A stretch of DNA of 64,000 bases. Origin: Phycisphaerae bacterium (lineage in GTDB: Bacteria; Planctomycetota; Phycisphaerae; UBA1845; Fen-1342). Within the stretch, counting starts at the first letter, position 1; the number at the start of each line of letters is the position of its first letter. The notes beneath the pieces were generated by a model that was not told where the DNA came from, did not search any database, and saw only the letters and a list, made by a program, of their open reading frames with translations. Shown piece by piece: positions 4,871-37,683 of the stretch. The position numbers were made by a program, and so were the translations under genes. The stretch covers positions 128,001-192,000 of the forward strand of contig CAXXWX010000026.1 of the NCBI GenBank assembly GCA_963675745.2, in the 5' to 3' direction.

Positions 4871-7800
4871 TTAGAACTCGATCGTCACGCTGTTTGAGCA
4901 TTGGGTGGCGCTACCTTCCTCGCATACCTCGTAGGTAAACGAGCCGGTAATGTCCTTGCCCAGGCTATCGCGATAGGCACCGTCATTGGTCGTTGTCGCA
5001 ATTAAGGCGCCGTTGCGATATATGTCCACGTTGGCCCCTACCGCGCCGGTCCATTCGAGATCGACCGTCTGCTTCTGGCCCAGCTTAAAGCCCACGCCAG
5101 TGAGCACGATGCCGGGACTGTCGGGCGTCGTTGCGCTGGCGGTGTTCGAGTACGCCGAGTCGCCGAACCCGTTGGTGGCCCGGACGCGATAGAAGTAGGT
5201 CGTCAGCGCGGACAGGCCGCTGTCAGAGTACGTAGTGACGTTCGCCCCAACCGTGTCGATGGTCGCCCAGGACGCACCATCGAGAGAGCGGTCGATCTCA
5301 AACCCGGACTCGTTGTCCGCGTTGTCGGTCCACCCGAGATCGATCTGGTTGTATGCGACCGCCGTCGCTCCCAGGGCGCTCGGGGCCGCCGGCGGGTCGC
5401 CCGGTCCCGTGTCGGAACGAATGAACATGTGATCGACATAGAGACTGTCCAGCACACGGTTGCCGCTGGTCTGGTCGGTGTCAACCACGCGGATGTACAC
5501 GGTGCCGGCGGTTGATGCTGGCAACGTAAAGGACTGGTACGCGCCGTCATCGCTGGTCTTGACCACCGTGACCATGGGGGTGTAGCTCGCATCGTCGGTC
5601 GAATAAGCGAAGATGAAATGGTCACCCTCGCTCGTCGGATCCTGATACGCGTTGAGATAGAACGTAACCGCGGTGCCGCCGGTCACGTTGATGGTCCACT
5701 TATGCTCCAGGTAGCTGTAGCGGTTCTGCGGCTTGCCGCCCGACTCGCGCTCAGTGAGTATCTCGCTCACGCCGTTGTCGGTCTGCGTGTCCACATACGA
5801 ACCGGATACCGAGCCCTGGACCGGCACGTCAGCGTTGGCAACGTCGTCCACATACTCCGGCGTTTCAGCGACCGTCACCGTTAGTTGATCGCTGGCGGTC
5901 AGAGCGCTGTCGTCGGCTTCCAGTTGAAGCACGTAAGTGCCGGCCGTGTCGAACTGCGCGGTCGTGTCCTCCGTGTTAGCGTCGCCGAACGTCACCGTAC
6001 CCGGGCCACTGACCTTGCTCCACGTAACCGTGAATGCCGCCGGCGGATCGGGCAGGCCATCGTCGGTCACCGTTCCGTCGAGATTCGCGGTCTCCTGGAG
6101 CCCGATCGACTGATCCGGACCGGCGTCAACCGTCGGCGCCTGGTTCGGGCCATCAACCGTGATCGTCACATCGTCGCTCGCCGTCAACTCGCTGTCATCG
6201 GCGGTAAGCCGCAAGACATATGTGCCGGCAATGCTGAACGCCGCGTTTGTATCCTCTACGTTGGCGTCACCGAACGTCACCGTGCCCGGGCCGCTGACCT
6301 TGCTCCACGTAACCGTGAATGCAGCCGGCGGGTTGGGCAGACCGTCGTCGGTCACGGTCCCGTCCAGGTTAGCGACGGCCGGCAGCGTTACGCTCTGATC
6401 GACGCCTGCATTAACACTCGGCGGCTGGTTTGTGATTGTGACCGTGATGACCACATCATCACTTGCCGTCAGTTCGCTATCATCGGCCGTGAGCCGCAGG
6501 GTATATGTGCCGGCAGCGCTGAACGAGGCGGTCGTGTCCTCCGCATTGGCGTCGCCGAACGTCACCGTACCCGGGCCACTAACCTTGCTCCACGTAACCG
6601 TGAATGCCGCCGGCGGGTCGGGCAGACCGTCGTCGGTCACCGTCCCGTCGAGATTCGCGGTCTCCTGGAGCCCGCTCGACTGATCCGTACCTGCATCCAC
6701 CGTCGGCGCCTGGTTCGGGCCATCAACCGTGATCGTCACGTCGTCGCTCGCCGTCAACTCGCTGTCATCGGCGGTAAGCCGCAAGACATATGTGCTCGCA
6801 ACGCTGAACGCGGCTGTCGTGTCCTCGGCATTGGCGTCACCGAACGTCACCGTGCCCGGACCACTGACCTTGCTCCAGGTAACCGTAAACGCGGCCGGCG
6901 GGTTGGGCAGACCATCGTCGGTCACCGTGCCATCCAGGCTTGCGACAGCCGGCAGCGTTACGCTTTGATCAACGCCGGCGTTAACGCTGGGCGGCTGGTT
7001 GACCGGCTCACCGGTCAACCTGGGCGCTGCACAGATCGAGAACGCCTGGGGGCCCTGCGGCACGCTGTACCCTGTTACTTGCACTGTCCACGTGCCCGCC
7101 GCCGGGTTGTTCACCAATACCTGCTCGATGTTGTTTACATGATCGGCCTGCGTCTGGACCGCGGGCGAACTCGGGCTGGCCGGGTTGAGCGTCCATGGAT
7201 ACGCCGGGTGACCGAGCGGATCGAGCACCACCAAGTCCAGGTCATTCACGAGGGCCGGGTTGACGTTCGGCGTGCCGGGGTGATCGTCCCAGGCCAAAGT
7301 CACTTTCAGCAGCGACTCGCCGGCGTTTACGGTGATCGGGTAGGTGACCGTTCCGCCCTGGCTCACCTGATTCTCTTCGAACGCGCCGCTGCGCATGAAA
7401 TCGATAGTGTCCTGGACGCGCACCGAGCCATAGCCGTAAACGTAATCCGGCCCGGTGTTACCCAGATCGACGGCTGTATGCGCGAGCAGGATCTTGCATG
7501 TCGAGTTGCGCGGCGCCGGTGCGGATGGGAACTGGGCGTAGTAATCCTCGAGCACCAGCACGAGGCAACCCGTCACGGTTGGAGCGGCCATCGATGTACC
7601 ACACAGCGTGGTGTATGCCGTGTCGCTCGATGAGTAGCATGATGTGACGCCGTAGTCGCTGCTGCTTTGGCAGCCGGGGCCCACGATGTCGGGTTTGAGG
7701 CGTCCATCGTCAACCGGCCCCCAACTGCTGAAACTGGTCATGGTGTCATTGTTCGAATTGATGGCGCCGACGCAGATGTGGTTCTTTGCGCCGGATGGCG

Positions 7801-9025
7801 GAGCGGTGCTGTAGTAATCGCCATAGCCTTCGATGTCGCAGCGGCTGCCCTGTCGCTCGTTGCCGGCGGACCAGACAACGCGGAACGGAGCACCCAGGCT
7901 CCCGCCGACGATGGCGTCGATCAGCGCCGACGTCACGCCGTAGTCGCCCTGGATCGAACACGAGAACCCGTTCGTTTCGGTGTTGGTGCCGATCGAGTTA
8001 TTCGCGATTTCGGCGCCGTATGTGTTGATCGCCTGGTTGTAATCAGATTCGAGATCGCCCGGGTTGCTGTAGAGGAAGATGCCGCTGCCATCGTACTGGA
8101 ACCCGTACGACACCATCGTGACTCCCGGAGCCATCCCCGCATAGGTGCCACCGCTGGCGGCGCCGCTGCCTCCGACGGTGCCCGCGACGTGCGTCGAATG
8201 ATAGTGCGTGCCGGAGCTGTCACGCACGGTCAGCCGTCCGCCGAAATCGTCGTGCGAAGCGCGTGCCGTTCCGCCGTCGTAGATCATCGCGGTAATCCCC
8301 GAGCCATCCAGGCCGTACGGGGCGGCTTGCACCGTGTCCGCTTGCACGCGCGTCCGGTTGTTGTCGTTGGTCACGGTCATATAGGGCAACGGCGGTTCGA
8401 TCCACATCACCGCGTCGGTATCGGCCAGCGCTTCGAGGTTGGCCCGCGGCAGTTCGATCACCAGGCCGTTCAGCGAAGCAATCTCGGATACGATCAGCGC
8501 GCCGTGCTGCTCCGCGATGGCGAGCCCGTCGTCATACAGCGACACGTCACCATGGAACAGCACATATGCCGCTACAAACTCCTCATCGGTGAGCGGATCA
8601 ACGCCGACTGCGAACTCGGGGTATGCGTTATTGAGGATCGCGGGTGCGAGCTTGTGGGCCCGCGCGATGCCCTGTGCGGCGCGCAATGAGGAGACCGCGC
8701 CGATGGCGCCGGCATCGCAATCTTGTCGCAGCGCGGCGAAGAAGGCGTGATCTCCCAGGTAATTCAACAGACTCAATCCGGCGTCTTTGAGTTCGGCGCG
8801 CTCAGCCGGCGTCACGGGACGCTCAAACTCAACGATTACATGCCGTTCAGCCGGTCGTTCGGCGAGCGCGGTCAACGCTTCGTGGACGGCAACCTGCGCT
8901 TGCGGGCCGTTCGCGACCGCCTCGGCTCTCCAATGAACCGCGGCGGGCACAGGGCGCGCGGCTAGAATCACCATCCCGACACCGACTATGCCGGCGAACA
9001 TCACACGATTCACTCTTGCTCCCAT
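4871..9025 (-). CDS. Secreted subtilisin-like S8 serine protease with four PKD-like repeats and an FN3 domain
   Basis: It has a signal peptide and the catalytic triad motifs [15 protein letters not shown] and GTSMAAP, plus [14 protein letters not shown]. These are followed by an LKVTLAWDD...NDLDL domain, 4 x NQ.P.V.AG.DQ repeats and an FN3 domain (PAAPSAL...LGW...YFYRVRATN). Confidence 0.93.
5870..7002 (-). repeat. Intragenic tandem duplication with a 570-bp period (A-B-A-B PKD-like domain pairs)
   Basis: Nearly identical blocks are offset by 570 nt, e.g. CGTCGGCGCCTGGTTCGGGCCATCAACCGTGATCGTCAC at 6131 and 6701. Ends are approximate. Confidence 0.85.
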
Positions 9026-9482
9026 TAGGGTTCTCCTCTCGCGAACGCGTTCTGCCCGCCATCACGCATTGCCCGTGCGTTTGTACGATTGTATCAAGCA
9101 TGTGGTCACAATCGGGCAACAACTAACGACGGTGAAGATTCGGTCGCCGCTGCTGCGCGCAGTCATCTCTGCCGGCACGCGCGCAAGCGAATATGCACCC
9201 CGGGCATAACTTCACTGTAGTGCTTGGTTTACACAGCGCAGCACGCCACTGAGCGACCAACCATGGCCACCGGCCCACGACGGCCACGGTAACCAGATTC
9301 CATCAGGAATAGTGTCTGTTTGATTCGCCCCGTCCTCCGCGACAAAGAAAGGCTGGCGCGATTTGCGTTAGAGCGGGACAACCCTGGCGATATGACGTCT
9401 TGTGAGATGTGATCGAGAGCCTGTATTACTGAACCCGCAACCACCGCGCAGCCATGCACCACACACCGCCGTCCCGTGTACG

Positions 9483-12400
9483 CTAATCCGGATCTCCGTA
9501 CAGCACGAAGGCGGACCAGTAGTATGGGTGTTCGTACGGGTGGACCGCGTCATCCGGTTCCGGCGGTCGTTGATGGGCCACTTCAGTACCGCGCTCTACC
9601 GCCGGCCCACCAACACTCATGGCGAGCGGACCGCTGCTCTGTAGCTCGCGCACCTCGGCTCGTGTCGCACAGCGCAGCCAGTGTTTCGCTTCGCGCAGCG
9701 CTGCGGCTTTCGGCATGGCAGCGCCGGCGTCATACGTGCGACCAGCAACCGCGCGCGGCGTGTCGAAGCGCCCCAGCAGGTTCTCGTAGAACCGCGTCAT
9801 CAGCAGCGCCGTCGCCGTGTCATCAACCTTCCACAGACTCAGCACCAGGCTGCGCGCCCCCGCCGCGAACAGCGCTTGTGAGAATCCCAGAAAGCCCTCA
9901 CCGCCGCCGGCCTTGCCCAACGCGGTCTGACACGCGCTGAGGGTCACCAGATCCGCGTCCAGCTTCCAGTTGCGGGCGATCTGGTCGGCGGTCAGTCGGT
10001 TGTCGTAGACCCGCCGATCTGCCGGCGCTGTCGCGGGAGAATCCGACGGTTCGTCTTGCGCCAGCAGCAGGGCCGAGCGCATCGAGACCTGATCATCCAT
10101 CACGCCATGTGTCGCGAAGTGGAGGACGCGATAGGTCTGCAACTCACCAGAGTTGGACAGTTCCTCGAGTTTGTGCTCGCTGGCGGCGGCGCCCAGGAGA
10201 ATCGTGGGCGGCTCAGTGGCTGGTAGCCCCTCAAACAGCTTCGCGACCGCGGCGACCTCGCGACGTGACGCCGGCAACGGAGCATAAGACTCGCCACGGA
10301 CGGCCAGCGCACGGGCCAAACGGTGTCGGGCGTTGACGGCATCGGCAACCGGCTGCCGGCTTACGCGCAGGCCGACTTTGCCCGGCGCCACCGACAAGGA
10401 TCGCGTCTGGCCGTCGCGCCACACCTGCACCGGCACGCGCGCCGGTGCAACCTCGGTAGCCGCCGCGCTTGCCTGGTCACCGGCGTCGGAATGCTCACCG
10501 GGCGCCGCGCGGCGCTGGGCGGCGGACTTTATCGCCGGTCCAAGGTCACGGGCGGTCGCCAGTTGCTGGCCATCATAGCTGAGGACAACGTCGCCGGCTC
10601 TCAAACCGCCGCGCTCGGCGTTGGAGCCGGGCAGCACGCTGGCAACCAGTACGCCGTACTCCGGCGGCTCGGACTCGGCGTCGGCATGCTTGTCCCGCTG
10701 CGGGAAGGCCGGATCACCCAGAGCTAGCAACGAGCGCCGGCCCTGCTGTTTTCCCGGTTCAGTATCCTGCCGCCGTTTTTCCACCAGCCACGCGTGCATC
10801 GTCCCGGATGGTGCATAGCTGACCGTGTACTCATCCGTCAGCACCTCGATCGGAATAGGGCTCATCACCCCGGCCGGCAGGATGATCAACTGCTTCACCG
10901 GCGGCCTGGCCGCACCACCTGCGAGGTGTGGTTGTATGGGGGCGATCCGCTGCGCGTACACCCGCTGAATGAGCTCTTCACGTGCCGCCGCCGTGCCGCC
11001 GCCCACCTGGCTGAGGGCGTTGCGGAGCTGGGGAAGCAGTTGGCTGTCCGCCTTGGTCCACGCGCCATCTTCACCACTGCCGGGCAGCTTGACCCAGGCG
11101 GGTGTACCCTGATGCCGCACCACGCAGGCCCAGTGCTCGTCGCCGGCGGAGTTGGCAAGGGCCGTGCTGTTAACATCGAGCCAGGCCACCAGGGCCGCGT
11201 CGATGGGAATCTCGCGTTGGATTTGGGACAGCTCGCGGACCTCGCCGGCCGTGGGACCGTGCCGCTCCCGCATCGTGAGGTTGAACCGAATGAGCTCGGC
11301 CTTGAGCGTCTCGCGCTCGCGCTCCAGCGTGTCGAGCAAGGCATCGCGCTCAGACGTTGCGGGCTTGGCGCGCATGACCGCGATGCGCTCATCCAACCGG
11401 CCGAAGCGACCGACCATGTTCTGTTCGGTCTCGCGCTCCGTCTTCGTCAACGGCCGTGCCTGGCGAAAGGCGATTTCGTCGAGCACGCCGCGTGCGAAGT
11501 GCGCCTCCAGGTGTTGAAAGGCAGCCGCCGGACGATCGAGGTACGCTTGAACGGCGGCGAGGGCGGTGAGCGGTGTGCCGCGCAGCTTGGCCCGTTCGAG
11601 ACCGCCGCTGGCGCTGGCGTGCAGGCGCGCCTTTTCAAACAGCTCGGCGGCTTCGATCAGCAGCGTCTCGGCCTCCGCGTACTCGCCGTTGTCCTTCAGC
11701 AGGATCGCCAGGTTCATCAGGCTGCGCACCGTGTCCGTGTGCTCGCGGCGTGCCGATTCGCGGATCACCGCCAGCGCCTCGCGCAGCAAGTGCTCCGCCG
11801 CCTCAGAATCACCTCTGTCGCGTAGCAGGCCGGCCAGGTTATTCAGCGAATACACGACGTCCGGGTGGTCCGGCCCCAACAGCCGGCGTCGCATGGCCAA
11901 CGCCTCTCGGAGCAACGGCTCGGCCGCGTCGTAATCCCCCTTGGCCGCCAGCAGCGACGCCAGGTTGTGCAGAGTGGCGGCTACGTCCGGGTGCTCATCG
12001 CCCAGCAACTTCCGGCGCAACGCCAGCGCTTCGCGGTAGATCGGCTCGGCCGCCTCGTAATCGCCTTTCTGCTTCAGCAACAACGCCAGGCTGGTGAGGC
12101 TGAGCGCCACGTCCGGATGCTCGTCGCCGAGTAAGCGGCGTTTCATCGCCAGCGCCTCGCGATAAAGCTGTTCGGCCGCGGTGTCGTCGCCTCGGACGTG
12201 CAGCACGTACGCCAGGTTGTGCAGACTGCTCGCCACCTCCGGATGATCGTCGCCCAATGCGCGGCGCCGCCCCGCCAGCACCTCGCGCCTGTACGCCTCG
12301 GCTTCGGCGAACCTGCCCATATCGTCCAGCAGTCCGGCCAGATTATTGAGCGAGGTCAACGTGTTTGGATTGTCCTCACCCAGCACGTGTCGACGTCTGT

Positions 12401-14106
12401 CGAGAACTTCGTGATAGTAGCCTTCCGCCTCGGCGTACGCGCCCATGCGCTCGAGCACAAAGGCCATGTTGTTGATCGACGTCAGAGTTCTCGGATGGTC
12501 GTCGCCCAATATACGACGGCGGGTCTGCAACACGTCGCGAAAATACGTCGCGGCCTCTTCATAGCGGCCCATTTTCTCCAAAAGCCAGCCCAGGTTGTTG
12601 ACCGTGGTCAGCGTATTGGGGTGATCCACGCCGAGCACGCGCCGGCAGCCGTCGACCGCCTCACGTTGGTAGTGCTCCGCCTCGCTGTACCTGCCCAGCG
12701 TAACCAGCACACTGCCCAGACTGCTGAGCGTTGCCAGTGTTCCGTAATGCTCGTCGCCAAACACGCGCTGCCTGATTTCCAGGGCCTCGCGGAGATGACG
12801 CTCGGCCTCCGCGTACTTGCCCATCTGGGCCAACAGCAGCCCCATGCCATTGATGATCGTCAACGTGCGCGAATCTTCATCGCCACAGACCTTGCGGAAC
12901 CCGGCCAATGCCTCACGGTAGTACGGCTCGGCTTCCTTGGGCTTTGCGCATGTAGATAAGCGCTGTGCCCATGCTACCGATGGCCTCCAGTGTCCGAGTG
13001 TCTTCCGGGCCCAGGACACGCCGCGCGGTCGCGATGGCCCGTCCATAGACTGTAGCGGCATCCTGGTAGGCGCCCATGTCGAGGAGGATGTCACCCAGGC
13101 CTCTGAGCGCGTTCAACGTGTCTGGGTTGTCGGGGCCAAGCAGTCGGCACCTCGCCGCAAGAGCCGCGCGGGTCAACGCCCCCGCCCGCGCAGCGTCGCC
13201 ATTCTGTTTCGTCGACACCGCCAGGTTGACCAGGCTCACCACCGTATGGGGATGCTCGCCGCCCAGAGACGCCTGCCAGTGCGCCCACGCCTGTCGATAG
13301 AGCACTTCGGCGGCCTCTTCGCCGCCATTTTCCCGCAACAGCGATCCGAGATCGTTGAGTAGTCTGGCCACGTCCGGGTGCTCGTCACCCAGCATGTGGC
13401 GACGGATCGCCAATTGCTGTCCGATTTCCGCCAGTGTCTGGTCCGTTGTTGTCTCTTCTGATTCGGACCTAGCACGGTAGGCGGCGCTCAGGCCGACGCG
13501 CCCTTCAGGCGGGAGTCTCAGTTGATGACGCAAGTCGTCGATCAGCCGCTGAGCGTCGCCGATCTCGAACCAGGTAGCCGGCGCACCGTCAGCATTCGTC
13601 CAACCGGACTGATATCTCTCGCGGATCGCCAGCACACGTTCGGCCAGTTCCAGCGCCTCGGCTAACGCGGCGTCTTGCGCCTCGGTGTCGTCACCTTGAA
13701 GGCCGCTGCGGCGTAGTCCGTCGACGCGTTCCTTGAGTGCATCAACTTCGAGTTTGACATCCTCGGGCAGCTCAGGCCTCGGCAACGCGGCCCCATCGAG
13801 CAGCGCCAGGACTTCCTCCAACGTCGGGATCGGCGCCAATGAGCTGAGAATCTCGTCAGTCGTCGGCGGGCTCAGGCTCTTGATGAACGCATCCAGATCA
13901 AACGCCGCCCCGATCGCCAGCAGCTCCTCTTCACTCATTGACCGCTCAGCGCCCTCTCGAGACGCGGCGGTTTGTTCGGCATCGACGTCACCGTTTCCTC
14001 GGGAGTTCGCTGTCTGGCCACAAGCCGCATGAGCCGTGACCGTTGTCATGGATAGAGCCACCGCCAGGAAGGCGCCGTGCGTGATCCAACTGCTTTTGCG
14101 TCCCAT
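9483..14106 (-). CDS. Exported TPR-CHAT (caspase-like) protease with a PDZ insert, copy 1; split by a +1 frameshift at about 12943-12945
   Basis: ORFs 12913..14187 and 9483..13094 join into a continuous TPR (IYMRK-PKEAEPYYREAL) if one A is removed from CGCAAAGCCC. The likely start is MGRKSSW with a signal peptide. It has 14 x 42-aa TPR, the HFATHG/LSACQT dyad, SLWKVDD and HPYYWSAFVLYG. Confidence 0.88.
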
Positions 14107-14190
14107 GCTTGTTCCCCGATGGTTGATCAACGTTGTTCGTGGTCCGCGTCGTGCCGGTCTCAACTGCGCCCTGGGAGGAATCGACAATCG

Positions 14191-15984
14191 CTACGGCTCC
14201 CTGGGCCGAACCGGCATCGCTATGACTCGCACGGCATCAAACGCGGGGTCGCCGGCGAGTTGCCGCGCGACCGCCTCCATGGCGCCGGGCGCAGTCCGAT
14301 GCTCCATCTCAATGCCGCGATTGCCGGGCTCCTGACGCCAGATGGCCTGGCCGTCCGAAGTCCACACGGTCGGCGTGTTGGCGGCGAATGAACCTGGATT
14401 CGAGCTGCGCCACGCCGCTTCGAGCAATGCGCGGCCCGGCCAGTCCGCGTAGCGCGGCAACGGCTCCCGTGAAGCTACCACTGCGAACGCTTGCAGGCCC
14501 GGCCCGTCGGTCAAGTGATAATGCACGTTTCCGCCGGGATAACGCGCTGCGGCAAGCCGATCCGGCGGAACGCCATCCTGCCGAGGGTACTTGCAGGATA
14601 CGCTGCCGTTCGTGTCAAAGACCAGCAGGTAGTAATAGGCCGGTTGGCTTAACGTTGTTGCAAGCTGGACACCGTCGTCGCCGACGACCGCCCAGGAATC
14701 CACGCCGATCCGGCCGAGCAGTCGGCCGGCGGAATTCGGATCGCGGTAGTCGTCGTAACGATAGTGCTCCAGCGCCAGCGGATCGATGCGCAGGTCGCCG
14801 GCCATCGCGCGTTTGGTCTGGTGACCCTTCATTGGCTCGATGGGCTTTGGCCAGATACCGTTTGCGAATGCGATCATCGCGATCACGGCCGCGGCGATTG
14901 CGCCGATCCAGATCCACGCCCCGCGACGAGGTGGAGCAATTTCCACCGCGGCGCCCCCGGCATTCCGAAGCGCGTCGGCGACGTCCTTCATCGACGGAAA
15001 ACGCTGGCTCTTGTCCTTGGCGATGCAGCGTTTGATGGCCCTGGTCAGTGCCGGTGCCACACCCCGGGTCAGCTCTTGCAGCGCGCGCTGCGGCACCAGT
15101 GACTCGTGCGGCGACACACCGGTGAGCAATTCCGACAGCAGCACGCCTAGCGCGTACTGATCCGCCGCCGGCGTACCGGGCCCCTCGGGGGGGCAGTAGC
15201 CACGCGTGAAGCCGCGCCCGCTGGATTCATCCTCGCTGCGCCGCATGAGCCCGTAGTCGGTCAGTTTCCACGCGCCGCCGTGGCGGATCACGTTGCCGGG
15301 CTTTACATCGGCGTGTACAGCGCCGCACTCGTGCAAATGCGCGAGAGCATCGGCGAGCGCGGCCCCGATCTGGGCCGCTTCGCGGGCCGGCAGGTGTCCG
15401 GCGCGGTTGAGCTTGATGCGCAGCGTCAGCGGCTGATAGTCACCAGGAACCACGACCGGCGAGCTGCCGTTGGCGTTGTCGGCCAGCGGCATGAGGGCGT
15501 AAAGCCAGTCACCGGCCGCCCCGACATCCTCGATGGCCAGCAAATGCGGGTGTTCGCCGACGCGCTGCTTGAGCGTTCGCAGGCCGTCCAACTCGAGTGG
15601 CGTGTCGCGACGGAAGAGCTTGGCCGCGCGAAAGTGCTCGGTGTAAGTGTTCCGCGCCAGCCAGACCTGGCCAAAGCCACCCTTCCCCAACAGACGCAGC
15701 AGCTCGTGGTTCGGAATCTGCACAGGCGGTTCACACGCGGTTTCGGGCTGCACAGCCCCGTCAGAGGCCGGCTGCGGGGAGGTGATCGTCTCGTCTGGCG
15801 CGCCAGGTGATGAAGTCAGCACGGGGTCCAGGTTTGCCCGCCTGGCCACGAAGTCGGCGAAGCCACCATCGAAGCCGCGCCGACAAGCCCGCTCAAAGGC
15901 CTCATGCACCGACTCCAGCCAGCCGCCATCAGTCCGGCGTGATGGCTCGTCGCGCTCCCCGGTATGATTGCTGCTGCTCGCCAT
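14191..15984 (-). CDS. Membrane Ser/Thr protein kinase with a C-terminal extracytoplasmic DUF4384-like domain
   Basis: Kinase motifs are LGKGGFGQVW, AAK, HADVKPGNV, LTDYGL, TRGYCPPE and DQYALG. A TM helix follows (WIWIGAIAAAVIAMIAFA). The ectodomain reads GDDGVQL..LSQPAYYYLLVFDTNGSV...YP...GLQAFAVVASREPL. Confidence 0.9.
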   Translation of the reverse strand: MASSSNHTGERDEPSRRTDGGWLESVHEAFERACRRGFDGGFADFVARRANLDPVLTSSPGAPDETITSPQPASDGAVQPETACEPPVQIPNHELLRLLGKGGFGQVWLARNTYTEHFRAAKLFRRDTPLELDGLRTLKQRVGEHPHLLAIEDVGAAGDWLYALMPLADNANGSSPVVVPGDYQPLTLRIKLNRAGHLPAREAAQIGAALADALAHLHECGAVHADVKPGNVIRHGGAWKLTDYGLMRRSEDESSGRGFTRGYCPPEGPGTPAADQYALGVLLSELLTGVSPHESLVPQRALQELTRGVAPALTRAIKRCIAKDKSQRFPSMKDVADALRNAGGAAVEIAPPRRGAWIWIGAIAAAVIAMIAFANGIWPKPIEPMKGHQTKRAMAGDLRIDPLALEHYRYDDYRDPNSAGRLLGRIGVDSWAVVGDDGVQLATTLSQPAYYYLLVFDTNGSVSCKYPRQDGVPPDRLAAARYPGGNVHYHLTDGPGLQAFAVVASREPLPRYADWPGRALLEAAWRSSNPGSFAANTPTVWTSDGQAIWRQEPGNRGIEMEHRTAPGAMEAVARQLAGDPAFDAVRVIAMPVRPREP

Positions 15985-15987
15985 GGG

Positions 15988-18900
15988 TCACTCCGAATCG
16001 CCGTAGAGGACAAAGGCGGACCAATAGTATGGATGTTCGTAGGGTCGGCGTACACTGGTTGCATCCGGTGCCGCGTGGTGTGTCATCTCTGTCCCACGGT
16101 CGGCAGCCGGGACATTGTCCACCATCGCAAGCGGCCCGGTGCTTTGTAGCTTGCGCACCTCGTCCCGCGTCAGGTGTCGCAGCCAACGCTTGGCCTCATC
16201 CAGCGCGGCCAGTTTTGGCATTGGCGTGCTCGGGACATACGTCCGGCCATGCACTTCACGTGGTTGGCTGTACGTCCCCAGCAGGTTCTCGTAGAACCGC
16301 GTCATCAGCAAGCTCGTCGCGGTGTCATCCACTTTCCAAAGGCTGGCGATCACCGTCTCCGCGCCTGCGGCGAAGAAACCAAGCGGCAAGGTCATCATGC
16401 TGCCACCGCGCTGTACGCCACGGCCGGTATCGCAGGCGCTGAGCACGACCAGCTCGGTGCCGTCGAGACGCCCCAGCCAGCGCTGGAACAACTCGTCGAG
16501 TGTCAGGAAGCCAATGTCGTCCGGCGTCGGCTTGTCGGGACGCGCCAGCGCCAGGCTGGCCTGCTCGGGATGGTCGGCATTGCCCGTGAGCCCGTGCGTG
16601 GCCAAGTGCAAGATGCGCGGCGGCTTTTTGCCGAAGGACACATTGCGCAGGCGCGGGGCCGATGCGGCGCCGCCAAGCAGGGTGACTGGTTCGACGCCAG
16701 CTTGATCCAGAAGCTCCGCAATCGCACCCGCTTCGCGCCGCGTGCCGGGCAGAGGCCTGAGCGACCCGCCGTGCAGGCGGATCTGGTCGAGCGCAGTGGC
16801 GTCGGCCCACTGTTCACTCGGCGCCTGATCGAAGAATGCCATTGAACGCAAGCCGGAGGCGGGCGAAGCCGGCGACGGCACGATTCCCAAGCGTCCGACG
16901 GCCAGGCGCGCTTCGAACGTCTCACCGTCACGCCACACGCCGGCAACAACAGGGCGACTGCTGTCGTCCCGGCTTTCGCCCGCAAAGCGTTTACTCGCGG
17001 CTGCAATGGCCGGGCCCAAGTCAGCGACGCTGCGCAGCGATTGCTCGGCATAGCTGAGCAGCACATCACCACGCCGCAGGCCGCCAGCAGCGGCATTGGA
17101 GCCGCGCTGCACCATCGCCAGCAGCACGCCACCCTCCGGATATTTCGGCTCAGCGACTCCGCCGCCGCCGAAATCGGGATCGCCTATCACAACTGCCCGC
17201 GCCGCGACCGCCCGCGCCCGCGCGGCGGCCCGGCGACGATCCATGGCGACGGTCGCCGATGGTGCGTATGCAATCGGCTTGTCCTCGGTCAGAAGTTCGA
17301 ACGGGATACCGTGCAGCGGCCCATCCGGGACAACGATCAACGTTGCGGCGTCGGCGATCGTGGCCTGCAACATTGCCGGTAGCAACGCCTCTCGCAGCTC
17401 AGCAACCGATGTCGGATTCAAAACCCGCGCTGTGCTCGGGCGCTTGGCAAGCGGTTCTCGGAGCCGCATAACCAGCTTCTCCAGCCGCTGGACCTCTTGC
17501 GGGCCCTTGGACAAGCGCCAACCCTGCACGCCGTTCCGATCGGCCGCAAGAACCGCCACGAGGTCGTCGGTCCAAATGATTGACAGCAGCATCTCGCCGG
17601 TTGCCAGAGCCGATTGAATCTCTGACACCTGCAACGGCTCAGCGGCCGGGATCAGATGTCGAATCTCGGCGAAGACTGCGGCGGCCTTTTCGCCGAGTTG
17701 GCGACGCAGGCTCGTCACCCGCGCATCCGCTTCCGTGATAAGTTGATCGAACTCGGCGACTTTGGTCGCGCGCTCGGTATCGGTCAGCGATTCGAGCGCT
17801 TCACAGGCTTTGCGCTGTCCGCGCAGGACCGGCAGGCGCCATTCAGCGGCGCGCACAGCCGTCTGCGCCGCGGCCTCAGCTTTCAGAGCCTGTTCGAGCC
17901 GCGCCGCGGCTCCGGTGTCACTGTTCGCGCGGGCCGCGCCGATCAGGTCCGGCTCTTCGCGCGATAGCAGGTCCAATGCCGCCCGCGCGCGGCCCCGCTC
18001 AGCGACCGCCAACGCTTCCACGAAACGCTTGTCCTCAATCAGCAGATCGCAATAGGCCGCCGCGATGGCGGAGAGGCGCAGCCGGCCCGCGAAAGCCGCC
18101 CGCTCCTGCAACCCGCCGACGACATCGACGCGCAGGCGCTCCGCCGCGGCCAGCGTCTCCCGATAGAGCGGCTCGGCATCCGCCAGCCGGCCCTGCGCCG
18201 CCAGCGTGCGGCCCAGGCTGTTGATGGTCGCGAGCGTTCGTGGGTGCTCAGCGCCCAGCGCGCGACGACTTATTTCCGCCACACGCCGCAAGCAACGCTC
18301 GGCCTCCGCCGGTTTGTGCTGTGCGAAAAGCAGGGCGCCCATGTTGTTGAGCGCAGCAAGCGCGGCGGGATGTTCCTCGCCCAGCACGCGGCGGGTGCCC
18401 TCCAGGGCCTGTCGATAGTACGGCTCCGCCTCCGCCAACCGGCCCTGCAATTCGAGCAAAACGCCCATGTCGTCCAGCGAGCGCAGCGTCTCCGGGTGAT
18501 CCACGCCCAGAACGCGCTTGCGGCCCTCCAACGCCTGCCGCAGGTACGGCTCGGCCTCGGACAGTCGACCACGCTCCGCCAGCAAGATCCCCATGTTCTG
18601 GAGCGAAGCCAGCGTGTCAGGGTGCTCGTCACCCAGCGCGTATTGCCGGTCCTCGAGCGCCTGCAGCAAATACATTTCCGCCTCGGTATAACGCCCCTGT
18701 TCCTGAAGCAGAGCGCCCACACTGCTGATTGCGCTGAGGGTGTCAGGGTGGCTATCGCCCAAAACGCGGCGGCGGCCTTCCAGCACCTGTCGCCAGTACG
18801 GTTCCGCCTCGGACAGTTGGCCCCGGGCCTGGAACAGGTACCCCATCCACGCAATCGAGCTCAGCGTGTCCAGATGCTCCGCGCCCAGTACGCGGCTGCG

Positions 18901-20457
18901 GAGATCCAGCGCCTGCCGCAAATACGGCTCGGCCTCGGACAGCCATCCCTGCTTCGCGAGCAGGGCCCCCATGTTGCTGATCAGCGTCAACGTGCTCGGG
19001 TGCTCCGCGCCGTAGACGCGCTGATGACCCTCCAGCGCCTGCCGGTAATAAGGCTCAGCCTCGGCAAGCCGGCCCTGCGCGACGAGCAAAAGGCCCATCC
19101 TGTTCATCGATTCCAGCGTCTCTGGGTGATCGGCGCCAAGTACATGCAGTTGGCCGTCCAGCGCCTGTCGGCAATACGCCTCGGCTTCGGGCAGGCGACC
19201 TTGTGATCGAAGCAGAGAACCCATTCTGCTCAGCGACATCAGCGTTTCCGGGTGGTTCGCACCCAGAGTGCGGCGACGGCCCTCCAACGCACGCCGATAG
19301 TACTGCTCGGCTTCCACAAGTTGGCCCTGCGCCTCGAACAGACTGCCCAGATTGTTGCAGCTGGTCAGCGTATTGGGGTGATCCTCGCCCAGCAAACGTT
19401 GCTGGCCCTCCAGTGCCAGCCGCCAGTAGTGCCCGGCTTCGGCCAGCCGACCCTGGGCATGAAGCAGCACGCCCATGTTGTTAACCGCAGTCAGGGTGCT
19501 TGCGTGATCCTCGCCCAGCACACGGCGGCGCCCTTCCAGTGTCTGCCGATAGTATGGCTCGGCCTCACCGAGCCGACGCTGCTCCATAAGCAGGATGCCC
19601 AGGTTGCTGGCGGCGGTCAGTGTTTCCGGGTGTTCCGCGCCCAGCACGCGGCAATAGCCCTCCAGTGCCTGCCGATAGTATGGCTCAGCCTCGCACAGGC
19701 GCCTCTGCGATCGAAGCAGGCGCGCCAGCCAGGCAATCGAGTTCAGCGTTTCCGGGTGTTCCGCCCCCAGTGTGCGACGATAGCCCTCCAGTGCCTGCCG
19801 CCAATACTGCTCGGCCTGCGCCAGTTGGCCTTGGGACTGAAGCAGGCAACCGACCCAGGACTGCGCGCTGAGTGTGTCCAGTTGCTCTTCGCCAAGTGTA
19901 CGACGGCAGATGCTGAGTTTGCGCTTGGCCAGCGCCAGGGCTTGGGCATGCTCCCGGGCAGCGTAGAGGCGGGCGAGTTCGGCCTCCGCCCCATCGAGCG
20001 AGGCGATCTCAGCCCGGGAACCGGCATCGAGCGCGCGTAACCGACGCAAGCGTTCGAGCTTCCTTGTCGCGTGAACTACCTCGTACCACACGCTCGGTTC
20101 ACCGGACGTTTCGCGCCAACGAACCACCTCCAGCGTGTTTCCCTGATGCTTCTCACGCAGCCCTAGCACGCGTTCGGCAAGCCGGATTGCCTCATCGAGC
20201 GCGGCATCCTGCTTCACCGTCGACTCCATCGTCAGCCCGTGCTTCTCCAAATCAGCGACCCGCTGCTCCAATCCGGCCACCTCCGCCGCGAGTTCTTCCG
20301 GCAATGTCGGGCGCGTAATTTCGAGTGGGCGGAGTTCCGCCGGTGGCCGGTTGGGGTCGGGCGTCGCTGTGGCAATGCTTGGCTGAGCAACGCAAGCCAG
20401 CAAAGCAGCGATCAGCATCGCTGATTCACTCAATCGGAGTGGGATGGCTGAGAGCAT
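15988..20457 (-). CDS. Exported TPR-CHAT (caspase-like) protease with a PDZ insert, copy 2
   Basis: It has a signal peptide-like N-terminus (the start could be the second Met, MLIAALLACVAQPSIA), 14 x 42-aa TPR, LIVVPDGPLHGIPFE, the HLATHG/LSACDT dyad and HPYYWSAFVLYG. Its stop lies 3 nt from the kinase ATG. Confidence 0.92.
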   Translation of the reverse strand: MLSAIPLRLSESAMLIAALLACVAQPSIATATPDPNRPPAELRPLEITRPTLPEELAAEVAGLEQRVADLEKHGLTMESTVKQDAALDEAIRLAERVLGLREKHQGNTLEVVRWRETSGEPSVWYEVVHATRKLERLRRLRALDAGSRAEIASLDGAEAELARLYAAREHAQALALAKRKLSICRRTLGEEQLDTLSAQSWVGCLLQSQGQLAQAEQYWRQALEGYRRTLGAEHPETLNSIAWLARLLRSQRRLCEAEPYYRQALEGYCRVLGAEHPETLTAASNLGILLMEQRRLGEAEPYYRQTLEGRRRVLGEDHASTLTAVNNMGVLLHAQGRLAEAGHYWRLALEGQQRLLGEDHPNTLTSCNNLGSLFEAQGQLVEAEQYYRRALEGRRRTLGANHPETLMSLSRMGSLLRSQGRLPEAEAYCRQALDGQLHVLGADHPETLESMNRMGLLLVAQGRLAEAEPYYRQALEGHQRVYGAEHPSTLTLISNMGALLAKQGWLSEAEPYLRQALDLRSRVLGAEHLDTLSSIAWMGYLFQARGQLSEAEPYWRQVLEGRRRVLGDSHPDTLSAISSVGALLQEQGRYTEAEMYLLQALEDRQYALGDEHPDTLASLQNMGILLAERGRLSEAEPYLRQALEGRKRVLGVDHPETLRSLDDMGVLLELQGRLAEAEPYYRQALEGTRRVLGEEHPAALAALNNMGALLFAQHKPAEAERCLRRVAEISRRALGAEHPRTLATINSLGRTLAAQGRLADAEPLYRETLAAAERLRVDVVGGLQERAAFAGRLRLSAIAAAYCDLLIEDKRFVEALAVAERGRARAALDLLSREEPDLIGAARANSDTGAAARLEQALKAEAAAQTAVRAAEWRLPVLRGQRKACEALESLTDTERATKVAEFDQLITEADARVTSLRRQLGEKAAAVFAEIRHLIPAAEPLQVSEIQSALATGEMLLSIIWTDDLVAVLAADRNGVQGWRLSKGPQEVQRLEKLVMRLREPLAKRPSTARVLNPTSVAELREALLPAMLQATIADAATLIVVPDGPLHGIPFELLTEDKPIAYAPSATVAMDRRRAAARARAVAARAVVIGDPDFGGGGVAEPKYPEGGVLLAMVQRGSNAAAGGLRRGDVLLSYAEQSLRSVADLGPAIAAASKRFAGESRDDSSRPVVAGVWRDGETFEARLAVGRLGIVPSPASPASGLRSMAFFDQAPSEQWADATALDQIRLHGGSLRPLPGTRREAGAIAELLDQAGVEPVTLLGGAASAPRLRNVSFGKKPPRILHLATHGLTGNADHPEQASLALARPDKPTPDDIGFLTLDELFQRWLGRLDGTELVVLSACDTGRGVQRGGSMMTLPLGFFAAGAETVIASLWKVDDTATSLLMTRFYENLLGTYSQPREVHGRTYVPSTPMPKLAALDEAKRWLRHLTRDEVRKLQSTGPLAMVDNVPAADRGTEMTHHAAPDATSVRRPYEHPYYWSAFVLYGDSE

Positions 20458-20576
20458 TGCCCGGACCCTCCCGAAAATGGTCCTTGCGAGATATGTGCAC
20501 TCCCCAGCAGAGTTACTATGGCAGCGCGATGCGGCCGCGCCAAGTGAAACGCCGGAATCAGGCCGCGCGCGGGCGC

Positions 20577-20608
20577 GGCACGACGCCCCCCCCCTGAGCC
20601 GTCGTGCC
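20577..20608 (-). terminator. Hairpin just downstream of the 31-aa small ORF
   Basis: GGCACGACG...CGTCGTGCC is a 9-bp perfect stem with a G-rich loop, 26 nt after the small-ORF stop. There is no U tail. Confidence 0.35.
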
Positions 20609-20634
20609 TGCGCCGCGTGGAACGTGTTCGCCGA

Positions 20635-20730
20635 CTACACGGAAAAGACTTCCCAGAGTCTGGTGAGGATCGCCGACACGAACTCGCCCGCGTTGTAGAG
20701 CAACGGCTGAATGAAGGCCTGCTGATACAT
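20635..20730 (-). CDS. Putative 31-aa peptide MYQQAFIQPLLYNAGEFVSAILTRLWEVFSV (below the ORF-track cutoff)
   Basis: A GAGGAG Shine-Dalgarno lies 7 nt before the ATG. The composition is protein-like rather than Arg/Pro/Ala-rich, a hairpin follows the stop, and it is co-oriented with the cluster. Confidence 0.6.
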   Translation of the reverse strand: MYQQAFIQPLLYNAGEFVSAILTRLWEVFSV

Positions 20731-20857
20731 GTGCAATCTCCTCATGGCACGCGTGGCCAGGCGATGAATCCGGACGATCCGAATTCCTGCTCACGGTCGC
20801 CTGCTTACCGTGGCGGGCGGTCGCGATTGTGTTGCTCAAGCAACCGCCTGCCTTTCA

Positions 20858-20910
20858 CCCCTTCATGCGTAATTGCGGGCGGACATTGCGGAAAACTCCT
20901 GTTTTTTTTC
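20858..20910 (-). promoter_or_regulatory. Candidate alternative-sigma (ECF-type) promoter upstream of the peptide/CHAT genes
   Basis: The minus strand shows an A-tract (A8) then TTTTCCGC-AATGTCCGCCCGCAAT-TACGCATGAA, a bipartite non-sigma70 arrangement. The assignment is inference only. Confidence 0.3.
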
Positions 20911-21161
20911 TGAGAGAGGAACGGAAGCCGACATGGACGACGTACTAACGGGCTTCAGGAGAGTCTGTTGCTCAGAAGTGTGCCACGGCTCTGTGAGCCG
21001 TGCGTTTTGCGGCAAGGCGGTACTGCTCAAGAGCACTCCACCCGTTTCATGACGACGGCCTGCGAGGCGCAGGCCGCTACTGTGCCATACGCGCAAGACA
21101 ATCGCATCGGAGACGGCGCTAGTGCGTAAGACGCCAGGGTTGCGCCGGGGAACCCACGTGA

Positions 21162-21725
21162 TCACGTGTCGAGGGTTGCCGCCCGCGCCAGCCAGTCCTT
21201 GGCCTTCTGCCAGTCGCGGCGAACAGTCTTGACCTCGACACCCAGAATGTCAGCGATGTCGGCGTCTTTCAGGCCGGCGAAAAACCGCAGCCGCACCACC
21301 TCCGCGGCGCGTGCGTCGACGTGCTCGAGTTTGCCCAGAACGGCGTTGACATCGACCGCATCGAGCGCGCGCTCATCGACGGCGATCTGGGCGGGGTCAA
21401 TATCGGCTCTCTGCGCCTCCCCGCCGCGCTTCGCCGTGCGCCGCTTGCGGGCCGCATCGATCAGCACCTGGCCCATGGCTTGGGCGAAGGCCCCGAACAG
21501 ATGACGCCGGTTCGCCAGCGCCGCCTCGTGCCCGCCGAATACCTTGCAAAACGCCTCGTTTACCAGAGCCGTCGGCTGCAATGTGTGATCCTGGCGCTCG
21601 CGCGCCATCCGGGCGGCGGCCATGGCGCGCAACTCATCCACAACCAGCGACATGAGCTGGTCGAGCGCTCCCGACTCTCCTGTCCTGACCCCTTGCAGCA
21701 GTTTCGTGATCTCGGCGGGTTCCAT
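21162..21725 (-). CDS. ECF RNA polymerase sigma factor, TIGR02999/ECF43-like (kinase-associated type)
   Basis: Reads EITKLL...ALDQLMSLVVDELRAMAA...HTLQPTALVNEAF...AKRGG...AEVVRLRFFAGL...IADILGVEVKTVRRDWQKAKDWL. The start is placed at MEPAEIT; the upstream extension in the ORF track looks spurious. Confidence 0.93.
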   Translation of the reverse strand: MEPAEITKLLQGVRTGESGALDQLMSLVVDELRAMAAARMARERQDHTLQPTALVNEAFCKVFGGHEAALANRRHLFGAFAQAMGQVLIDAARKRRTAKRGGEAQRADIDPAQIAVDERALDAVDVNAVLGKLEHVDARAAEVVRLRFFAGLKDADIADILGVEVKTVRRDWQKAKDWLARAATLDT

Positions 21726-28471: not shown

Positions 28472-28576
28472 GAACATCCCTTTCATTCTCCGGCCTCAGT
28501 TCTTCTTTCTTGCTGCCGCAATCAGGGCCAAAGCGGCCCTGTCCGGTTACACCCAAAGGCCAAGCTCCCTGGGGTC

Positions 28577-37293: not shown

Positions 37294-37683
37294 AATTCTT
37301 CTACGTGCCCACGCGAGACTTCGTCCGGCTCCCATGGGGATCCGAACTGACGCATTCAGCATACCCAAGCCGTGTTCACAGCCGAAGCACCACAAGCTGG
37401 CTGATCAGTACGCCCTCCGCGATGTTATCCCTGTCGAGCTTGTCGCATCGCCGCGCCGTCGTAGACATACCGCTGGGCGATGAAGTCGCGGCTCTGGTTG
37501 CCCGAGGCCGCGACGAACTCGTCAGCCCGCCGGCAACTTAACGATGTGCGCACTCCAGGCCGCGGGGTTGCTCAAGATTTGCTGGCGACGCCTTACCCAT
37601 CTCAGTACGATGGAGGGGCGTGGAGTGCCGAGTCCCGCCCCACTTCTCGGCCGTGTGATCGGTGCTCCAAATGGGAGAGCAAC

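Follow-up and report, generated by a model that had tools for sequence, protein, structure and literature searches.

Genes of the locus and their conservation

The window analysed here, a stretch of 64,000 nucleotides (nt) from contig CAXXWX010000026.1 of a Phycisphaerae bacterium, contains a locus in which a single-pass receptor kinase is encoded between two TPR-CHAT proteases, and receptor and proteases carry an Arg-Gly motif whose following residues are matched, so that the partners of this and of many related loci appear very probably to be coupled through it. A sequence-only reading of this DNA had described six co-oriented genes at this place, and all six open reading frames (ORFs) are indeed found on the minus strand. 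Those considered for the system are listed together with the motif sites (lengths in amino acids, aa; TM, transmembrane segment).

21162..21725, minus strand: ECF sigma factor of the TIGR02999 (ECF43-like) type, 184.8 bits against a cut-off of 126
15988..20457, minus strand: CHAT1, 1489 aa, with a signal-peptide-like start, about 14 TPRs and a CHAT domain with PDZ insert
16075..16098, minus strand: CHAT1 motif (barcode) RGTEMTHH (Arg1454) in the last loop, read from the sequence; predicted self-cleavage or pseudo-substrate site
14191..15984, minus strand: single-pass Ser/Thr kinase, 597 aa, with kinase domain, TM at 356-374 and ectodomain at about 395-597
14296..14319, minus strand: receptor motif RGIEMEHR within the ectodomain, with Arg556 as the predicted point of cleavage
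9483..14103, minus strand: CHAT2, 1539 aa after a one-base correction near 12943, with a signal-peptide-like start, TPRs, CHAT domain and PDZ insert
9570..9593, minus strand: CHAT2 motif RGTEVAHQ in the last loop, read from the sequence

The earlier reading had also placed a gap of 3 nt between the kinase gene and the CHAT gene downstream of it; such a gap exists, but it separates the upstream CHAT1 gene from the kinase, whereas the distance from the kinase to CHAT2 is 87 nt. In the assembly the CHAT2 gene (14103-9483) is split into two frames. The base at 12943 is absent, at full depth, from three out of three sequencing runs (two samples of one study, possibly the source sample), which indicates that CHAT2 is one gene of 1539 aa and the break an assembly error, and there is no second gap over CHAT2 in the compared run contigs of 4135, 1172 and 367 nt. 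Recoding or a pseudogene as the origin of the frameshift is ruled out by the lack of the extra base in the same three runs. In a paralogous locus (L001) several breaks likewise correspond to extra bases with respect to the run contigs, at low depth.

The two CHAT domains score 199.8 and 199.5 bits in Pfam (cut-off 24), each with a PDZ insert, and the His/Cys dyads which had been described as intact are read in both sequences (HLATHG/LSACDT and HFATHG/LSACQT), being His1288 and Cys1342 in CHAT1. Across the alignment of CHATs from related loci the catalytic His is present in 52 of 53 and so is the catalytic Cys. The approximately 14 TPRs of CHAT1 are of the kinesin-light-chain type. The AlphaFold model of its residues 731-1489 has a mean pLDDT of 89.7 and is matched in Foldseek by the Craspase TPR-CHAT, Csx29, DdvA and separase, DdvA (8ROT) being also the only PDB sequence match of the catalytic part (E 0.0015). 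As for the signal-peptide-like N-termini, called here by a crude hydropathy rule and not by SignalP, CHAT1 has a hydrophobic start (2.79 over 12 aa) and that of CHAT2 is borderline (2.01 over 11 aa). Applied to relatives, the same rule detects a hydrophobic start in 46 of 54 CHAT genes that stand apart from the receptor gene, and in 3 of 62 kinases taken as controls. Single chains with the order kinase-TM-ectodomain-TPR-CHAT are found in L086, P0096, L134 and L135, which puts the TPR-CHAT part beyond the TM and points to a position outside the cytoplasm. Export of the TPR-CHAT proteins to the periplasm is likely, judging from these sequence features.

The kinase has the single TM (hydropathy 2.29) and the ectodomain that had been assigned to it, and it carries Lys122, Asp226 and a DYG motif. 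It is of the non-RD type (HADVKPGN) with a short activation segment; among the relatives counted, 46/61 have HRD and 10/61 have HQD. Its ectodomain scores 22.6 bits for Pfam DUF4384 (PF14326), under the 27-bit cut-off, that of L133 reaches 27.1 bits, and the nearest protein-atlas clusters are DUF4384 (0.91-0.93), from which it likely represents a divergent and extended DUF4384 subfamily. The AlphaFold model of this domain has a pLDDT of 92.2 overall and of 64 at its residues 161-170, the lowest-confidence block, which contains the motif. Searches against solved structures gave no sequence match at E<0.3 and no Foldseek match at E 0.001, and structure comparison of this Ig-fold domain yielded weak Ig/macroglobulin-like matches only (VIA Z≤6.8).

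Related loci were collected from genomes and metagenomes with alignments of the ectodomain, 60 places coming from a class-wide search (nearly all new strong matches, some weak), and the set used for synteny comprises 69 loci with an ectodomain of at least 100 bits, the window and 10 duplicates or fragments being left out. Conserved synteny in relatives had been set beforehand as a test of the system, and it is observed: a CHAT gene lies within 9 kb of the ectodomain in 51 of the 57 related loci with room for it, and in 49 it is immediately downstream on the same strand. A kinase precedes the ectodomain in 57/66. Other parts proposed earlier turned out to be variable. An essential role of PDZ is not supported, this domain being present in 34 of the 49 downstream CHATs, and neither is ECF43 as the obligatory output: a sigma gene is found upstream in 28/55 loci, ECF43-like in 6, and a TIR domain replaces the kinase in some receptors. 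The upstream-sigma count is a lower bound, since the sigma models derive from the window genome. The conserved unit, smaller than the six genes, consists of a single-pass receptor with DUF4384-like ectodomain and a TPR-CHAT protease whose start resembles a signal peptide.

Besides the single chains mentioned above, a kinase-ectodomain-CHAT fusion without TPR occurs in P0156 and partial fusions in L094 and L039. The cytoplasmic part varies, being TIR or SEFIR in L097, L105, P0014, P0030, P0040 and P0082, CHAT in P0061 and a short unassigned domain in L039. In two of these loci (L097:3360-4628 and L105:3365-4657) TIR/SEFIR-TM-ectodomain stands immediately ahead of TPR-CHAT(PDZ), a bacterial arrangement of Toll-like type, and in another (L039:9611-13923) a sigma gene is followed by short cytoplasmic domain-TM-ectodomain-TPR in one frame and then by CHAT, a DdvA-like layout. 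The receptor family amounts to 732 clusters (50% identity) at E<1e-30 and to 1637 at 0.001; in the sampled loci it is seen mainly in planctomycete genomes, with a patchy spread (46/401 genomes of one class, 5/278 others in the order of the window organism and 0/71 others in its family).

The Arg-Gly motif in receptor and protease

In the AlphaFold models the Arg-Gly motif sits in the least ordered loop of both partners, this being the last loop in the CHAT protein, where model residues 720-736 of CHAT1 are the sole segment with pLDDT below 50. The ectodomain Arg is invariant in 26/26 aligned ectodomains, and of 147 further representatives 144 have the Arg and 132 the Arg-Gly pair. A second Arg-Gly just ahead of the catalytic part is present in some CHATs and absent from CHAT1.

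Comparison of the partners reveals that the similarity extends past the Arg-Gly pair and is specific to each locus. In the window the kinase motif RGIEMEHR goes along with RGTEMTHH and RGTEVAHQ in the CHATs, while in the second locus of the same genome (L001) receptor and CHAT have RGTIRERA and RGTVRERP, respectively. For a quantitative analysis the CHAT site was chosen by a fixed rule that is blind to the ectodomain, which left 64 loci out of 67 after removal of one siteless locus and two duplicates. Over the seven residues that follow Arg-Gly, the mean BLOSUM score of cognate pairs is 12.27, against −2.53 for permuted pairs (z 16.5), corresponding to 3.03 versus 0.83 identities, whereas the six residues preceding the Arg have no match signal (z 0.1). 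The per-position match runs from the second through the eighth residue after the putative cut, and the signal persists upon clustering into 47, 39 and 19 clusters (z 14.0, 12.1 and 7.7, the last at 45% identity). Cognate motifs win in 38/38 same-genome swaps (11 genomes, the pairs sharing loci) and are strictly best in 28/32; in independent pairs (n=29) on a motif-free tree, built from 59 loci after leaving out 5 truncated ones, they win 18 times, lose 4 and tie 7 (p=0.002).

Two trivial origins of the match were considered. Genome composition or shared ancestry is excluded by the controls with upstream residues, same-genome swaps and independent pairs, and DNA copying between the motifs is unlikely, as 160/309 identical motif residues are encoded by different codons.

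Within the genome, the receptor sites were scored among 26,401 Arg-Gly sites in six-frame ORFs. With the CHAT motifs of their own locus alone, the window and L001 receptor sites rank 11 and 3, whereas with the CHAT motif of the other locus the ranks are 4115 and 5205, which indicates that the two pairs are mutually exclusive. In a genome scan for carriers of the barcode, no other obvious one ranked over the locus genes. Beyond the window locus, this genome encodes another kinase-ectodomain protein and four additional TPR-CHAT(PDZ) proteins (C26:1-18000, L001; C26:59135-63541, L002; C19:144782-150679, L003). One of these CHATs, on C19, carries a motif of the window type (RGAEVAHQ) with no receptor nearby and, from this resemblance, could have the window kinase as its partner in trans. 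Near paralogous CHAT loci (L003:1197-7283, L004:215-5190) there are modules of AAA ATPase and DUF3150, ADP-ribosylglycohydrolase and integrase genes.

Ectodomain and CHAT are unrelated and the motif has no shared descent, so that the match implies one reader for both sites. A coupling of protease and receptor through the motif is thus very probable on these sequence comparisons.

Predicted cleavage and signalling output

The nature of this reader is suggested by proteases of known specificity. The CHAT protease HetF cuts PatU3 after R117, before Ser (PMC9457339), and separase also cuts after Arg (PMC11506125); from these precedents and the conservation of the motif we infer that the CHATs are Arg-specific, and cleavage at the motif Arg is probable. 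In one group of Csx30 proteins the C-terminal domain belongs to DUF4384 (bioRxiv 2022.08.17.504292), and PknS is phosphorylated when devoid of its ectodomain and not at full length (PMC13147305). Because one reader is implied, and in view of the CHAT precedents, the DUF4384 of Csx30 and the restraint of PknS by its ectodomain, our preferred reading, with a probability of roughly 0.55 on the basis of sequences, models and analogy, is that the TPR-CHATs are latent Arg-specific proteases which nick the matched Arg-Gly loops in themselves and in their own receptor, whose kinase would thereby be switched on.

In this sequence of events a trigger would be sensed by the TPR or PDZ part of the exported latent CHAT, and the activated protease would then cut after the Arg in its own loop and in the ectodomain loop of its own receptor, the residues downstream of the Arg acting as an address that keeps paralogous pairs insulated. 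The nick would lead to kinase activation via a conformational switch or a new N-terminus, and the active kinase would phosphorylate Thr52 of the ECF sigma factor. A nick at Arg556 would detach no more than the 41 C-terminal residues, whose final strand is part of the sandwich. After such a cut the ectodomain would probably retain its last helix and strand, and the CHAT its last strand, which makes a switch or a new N-terminus likelier than shedding. The core of the earlier proposal, extracytoplasmic CHATs acting on the kinase ectodomain without CRISPR, is in line with the synteny and gains much stronger support from the fusions and the locus-matched motif.

A number of observations weigh against the nicking model. 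A specificity that reaches seven residues past the cut would be unusual for CHATs, because HetF required little beyond the P1 Arg (PMC9457339), and autoproteolysis of DdvA was not observed in its own study (PMC11506125). The match score is zero or lower in 11 of the 64 loci (e.g. L039, L074, L098 and L107), and the use of the same codon for identical residues is somewhat over expectation (149 versus 121.6). In three loci (L084, L112 and L116) Arg-Gly is retained although the surrounding 9 kb hold no CHAT gene, and tandem second CHAT copies (L077:11029-13383 and L090:2715-5048) have one dyad residue missing and the motif retained, possibly as decoys or allosteric partners. On the output side, the ECF gene is separated from the kinase gene by CHAT1 and a repeat, a sigma gene is upstream in only 28/55 loci with the genome-derived models, and the N-terminus of the window kinase scores merely 0.4 bits against the N-terminal domain of ECF43-adjacent kinases, for which its closest homolog (P0002, 63% identical) scores 32 bits.

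The extent of the match beyond the Arg can also be read in a different manner, namely that the protease cuts after Arg with little choice on the primed side, and that the signal resides in the newly exposed N-terminal stretch itself, Gly and the next seven residues, which would bind a pocket in an ectodomain or TPR and so cluster receptors and activate further protease. Such a relay resembles eukaryotic protease-activated receptors, and kinase, TIR/SEFIR and CHAT-type domains, which are interchangeable as cytoplasmic domains on this ectodomain, are generally switched by clustering. In agreement, the match begins sharply after the Arg, reaches the eighth primed position and has nothing before it, and HetF relies mainly on the P1 Arg (PMC9457339). 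However, no binding pocket was found, a mutual-information scan for CHAT specificity residues (47 rows) detected no distal co-varying site, and both cut products likely remain tethered in their folds. We consider this relay rather unlikely; it predicts the same cut bond as the nicking model. A broader formulation, to which we give somewhat less than even odds, is that of a bacterial family of protease-activated receptors, in which a secreted CHAT would cut itself and its receptor at the shared Arg-Gly and the seven uncovered residues would serve as co-evolving address or as tethered ligand. Several pathways could then operate in parallel within a cell and drive exchangeable outputs (kinase, TIR or protease) across the membrane.

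Natural variants of the locus bear on whether the receptor is cut at all. In L134 and L135, which belong to one genus and count as one event, the fused CHAT is without the catalytic His and both motifs are absent. In these two loci (L134:7166-13290, L135:7271-13050) an ECF43 gene precedes a single chain of kinase-TM-ectodomain-TPR-PDZ-CHAT, likely a non-proteolytic derivative as judged from its sequence. L136 has Arg-Asp in both partners, the Gly is absent from four ectodomains without nearby kinase or CHAT, and five unrelated CHATs from relatives have no such loop. If the receptor were uncut, the motif would be a docking or pseudo-substrate peptide, the CHAT loop blocking its own active site and the receptor loop serving to tether, inhibit or activate, with the true substrate elsewhere. 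A motif within the protease itself fits autoinhibition, the two second CHATs with incomplete dyads retain it, and the fusions show the importance of tethering; yet both motifs are gone in the one lineage whose sole protease is devoid of the catalytic His, an Arg that hardly varies, with a small residue behind it, agrees with established cleavage sites of CHATs (PMC9457339), and the genome scan gave no other obvious carrier of the barcode above the locus genes. Altogether, a docking role without receptor cleavage seems decidedly unlikely to us.

Concerning the output, the window ECF, classed by its TIGR02999 score and not by formal ECF group models, has Thr52 within a QPTA motif, which matches T51 of EcfK and the QTTA consensus (PMC13147305). 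Eight of the ten ECF paralogs of the genome adjoin a kinase; the window ECF lies 5.4 kb from the locus kinase, with CHAT1 between, and no other kinase is closer to it. From these sequence data, the window ECF may be the output of the kinase, an assignment that we put at slightly short of even chances. The pair could instead be real and its output another one, the kinase having other targets, perhaps in defence or growth arrest, and the ECF being a relic or only a transcriptional driver. The limited occurrence of upstream sigma genes, the TIR cytoplasmic domains of some receptors, the patchy spread (0/71 in the family and 5/278 in the order), the integrases near paralogs and the missing N-terminal domain of the window kinase all fit this possibility, which nevertheless appears very unlikely given the Thr in the QPTA motif, the locus kinase as the nearest one, the position of ECF43 immediately before the kinase in several relatives, and the lack of defence genes among the window ORFs scanned. 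In PADLOC the six locus proteins matched only generic kinase and TPR models. The TIR outputs, the patchy spread and the integrases are a hint of a defence role, although the window as such does not constitute a defence island.

Related systems and neighbouring elements

Among the closest described arrangements is DdvA-DdvS of Myxococcus xanthus (PMC11506125), in which a TPR-CHAT with His-Cys dyad, extracytoplasmic there and likely so here, is tied to a single-pass protein and an ECF, cleavage being proposed to occur outside the membrane. DdvA unites anti-sigma function and a zinc-binding domain in a single chain that is released via RseP (PMC11506125), whereas in the present family the protease is usually separate, the receptor joins a DUF4384-like ectodomain to a kinase or TIR part, there is a PDZ insert and the matched motif is in both partners. 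The window CHATs have no anti-sigma Pfam match, the TM protein being a kinase; in the available part of the DdvA paper there is one unrelated mention of a kinase and none of planctomycetes (PMC11506125). Type III-E Craspase, Csx29-Csx30-RpoE, is similar in that a TPR-CHAT has a dedicated sigma-linked partner, which Csx29 cuts and the present CHATs are predicted to cut, but Csx29 is cytoplasmic, depends on Cas7-11 and target RNA for its activation, cleaves behind Met and has no TM kinase (bioRxiv 2022.08.17.504292). It is encoded along with Cas7-11, Csx30, Csx31 and a CRISPR array. No cas family was found among the window ORFs scanned in Pfam, CRISPR arrays not being searched for.

The pairs EcfK-PknS and EcfP-PknT (PMC13147305, PMC7826278) resemble the window system in the TIGR02999-type sigma with conserved sigma2.2 Thr and in the single-pass kinase, which is restrained by its ectodomain in those pairs and presumably in the window. 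The window sigma is indeed of the TIGR02999 type, with an uncharged QxTA motif and the conserved Thr. The excerpts of those papers describe no protease partner for ECF43 kinase pairs (PMC13147305, PMC7826278) and, unlike in these pairs, the sigma gene in most relatives is of another type or was not detected, and the kinase of the window is a non-RD one. CHAT, sigma and Ser/Thr kinase are also clustered in the SAVED-CHAT/PCaspase/PCc-sigma/PCk system of Haliangium, which differs in responding to cyclic oligoadenylate via SAVED, in its tie to CRISPR or CBASS and in the C14 caspase as second protease, no TPR-CHAT export or matched motif being described in the part available (bioRxiv 2023.06.23.546230); no SAVED or C14 caspase domain is among the Pfam matches of the locus proteins. 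HetF-PatU3 of Anabaena shares the cut of one partner after Arg before a small residue, as predicted here, and differs in its cytoplasmic CHAT, periplasmic TPRs, degraded substrate and the minor influence of the site surroundings (PMC9457339). Finally, ECF25 has putative anti-sigma factors with DUF4384, not linked to CHAT in the portion seen (PMC7826278).

The locus appears to serve CHAT-gated signalling with a strong putative specificity code, and it belongs neither to the DdvA nor to the Csx29-Csx30 type, though these are its structure matches. The pairing of receptor and protease and the matched motif are not described in the available parts of PMC11032199, PMC8195603 and bioRxiv 2025.01.12.632604, and no account of them was found in the literature searched, most subscription papers and two planctomycete ECF surveys being outside its reach. 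A substrate is known for only a minority of TPR-CHAT proteases, and the same holds for the signals of ECF-associated kinases. For dozens of these proteases the family points to a putative substrate, down to the bond that would be cut. DUF4384-like domains gain a candidate role as ectodomains addressed by CHATs, which links Craspase and DdvA to the receptors described here. Should the barcode determine specificity, nature would provide in these loci a library of orthogonal protease-receptor pairs, and bacteria would have a counterpart of the protease-triggered receptor signalling of eukaryotes.

Three further elements flank or interrupt the genes described above.

20965..21125, no strand assigned: dispersed short genomic repeat (REP-like), outside the system, between ECF and the CHAT1 leader
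20565..20894, minus strand: leader cassette of 330 nt with a 31-aa ORF (20730-20635, GAGGAG upstream)
4871..9025, minus strand: S8 subtilase with PPC, PKD and FN3 (Pfam) and an N-terminus resembling a signal peptide; a neighbouring gene that probably does not belong to the system

The linkage of the ECF gene is not tight: it is 431 nt from the peptide ORF, a distance that contains the dispersed repeat, and the peptide ORF is 177 nt from CHAT1. Many blastn copies of the repeat on several contigs of the genome are among the matches listed, and comparison of the sequencing runs with the window gives a spike in depth and loose contig ends at this place. The leader cassette has an 88% identical copy ahead of the C19 CHAT paralog, only this paralog and CHAT1 carrying it, and the 31-aa peptide, which looks amphipathic, is 87% identical there; a frame beside the C19 copy is presumably transposase-like. 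No further significant match of the peptide was found in the same genome and the fetched related loci. An Rfam scan of window positions 1-30000 and Sigma70 promoter scans gave nothing.

The S8 gene begins 457 nt after the last CHAT stop, close to the 460 nt given before. That all six genes, with peptide and subtilase, form one cascade was the original proposal; it agrees with their co-orientation and with the actinobacterial ECF54, whose gene is accompanied by those of a subtilase and a TPR-CHAT (PMC7826278), and the S8 gene might be among the targets. As a conserved unit this is largely refuted and hardly credible, since S8 is present in 0/48 related loci with at least 8 kb downstream (single-sequence S8 model) and the peptide in none outside the window genome, where it also precedes one paralog; moreover, the S8 protein is without any Arg-Gly dipeptide and four other S8 paralogs are on contigs without CHAT genes. 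ECF54 itself is described as 100% actinobacterial, with no kinase-DUF4384 receptor mentioned in the excerpt (PMC7826278), and its loci have a conserved subtilase and a carboxypeptidase-regulatory gene next to ECF and TPR-CHAT, whereas the 48 related loci lack S8.

Elsewhere in the window, the genes at 1880-4477 and 26036-28486 encode large secreted-looking proteins without Pfam match, whose repeats we take to be dockerin-like, and at 37465-42876 there is a multiheme cytochrome c of 1800 aa with Cytochrome_C7 repeats.

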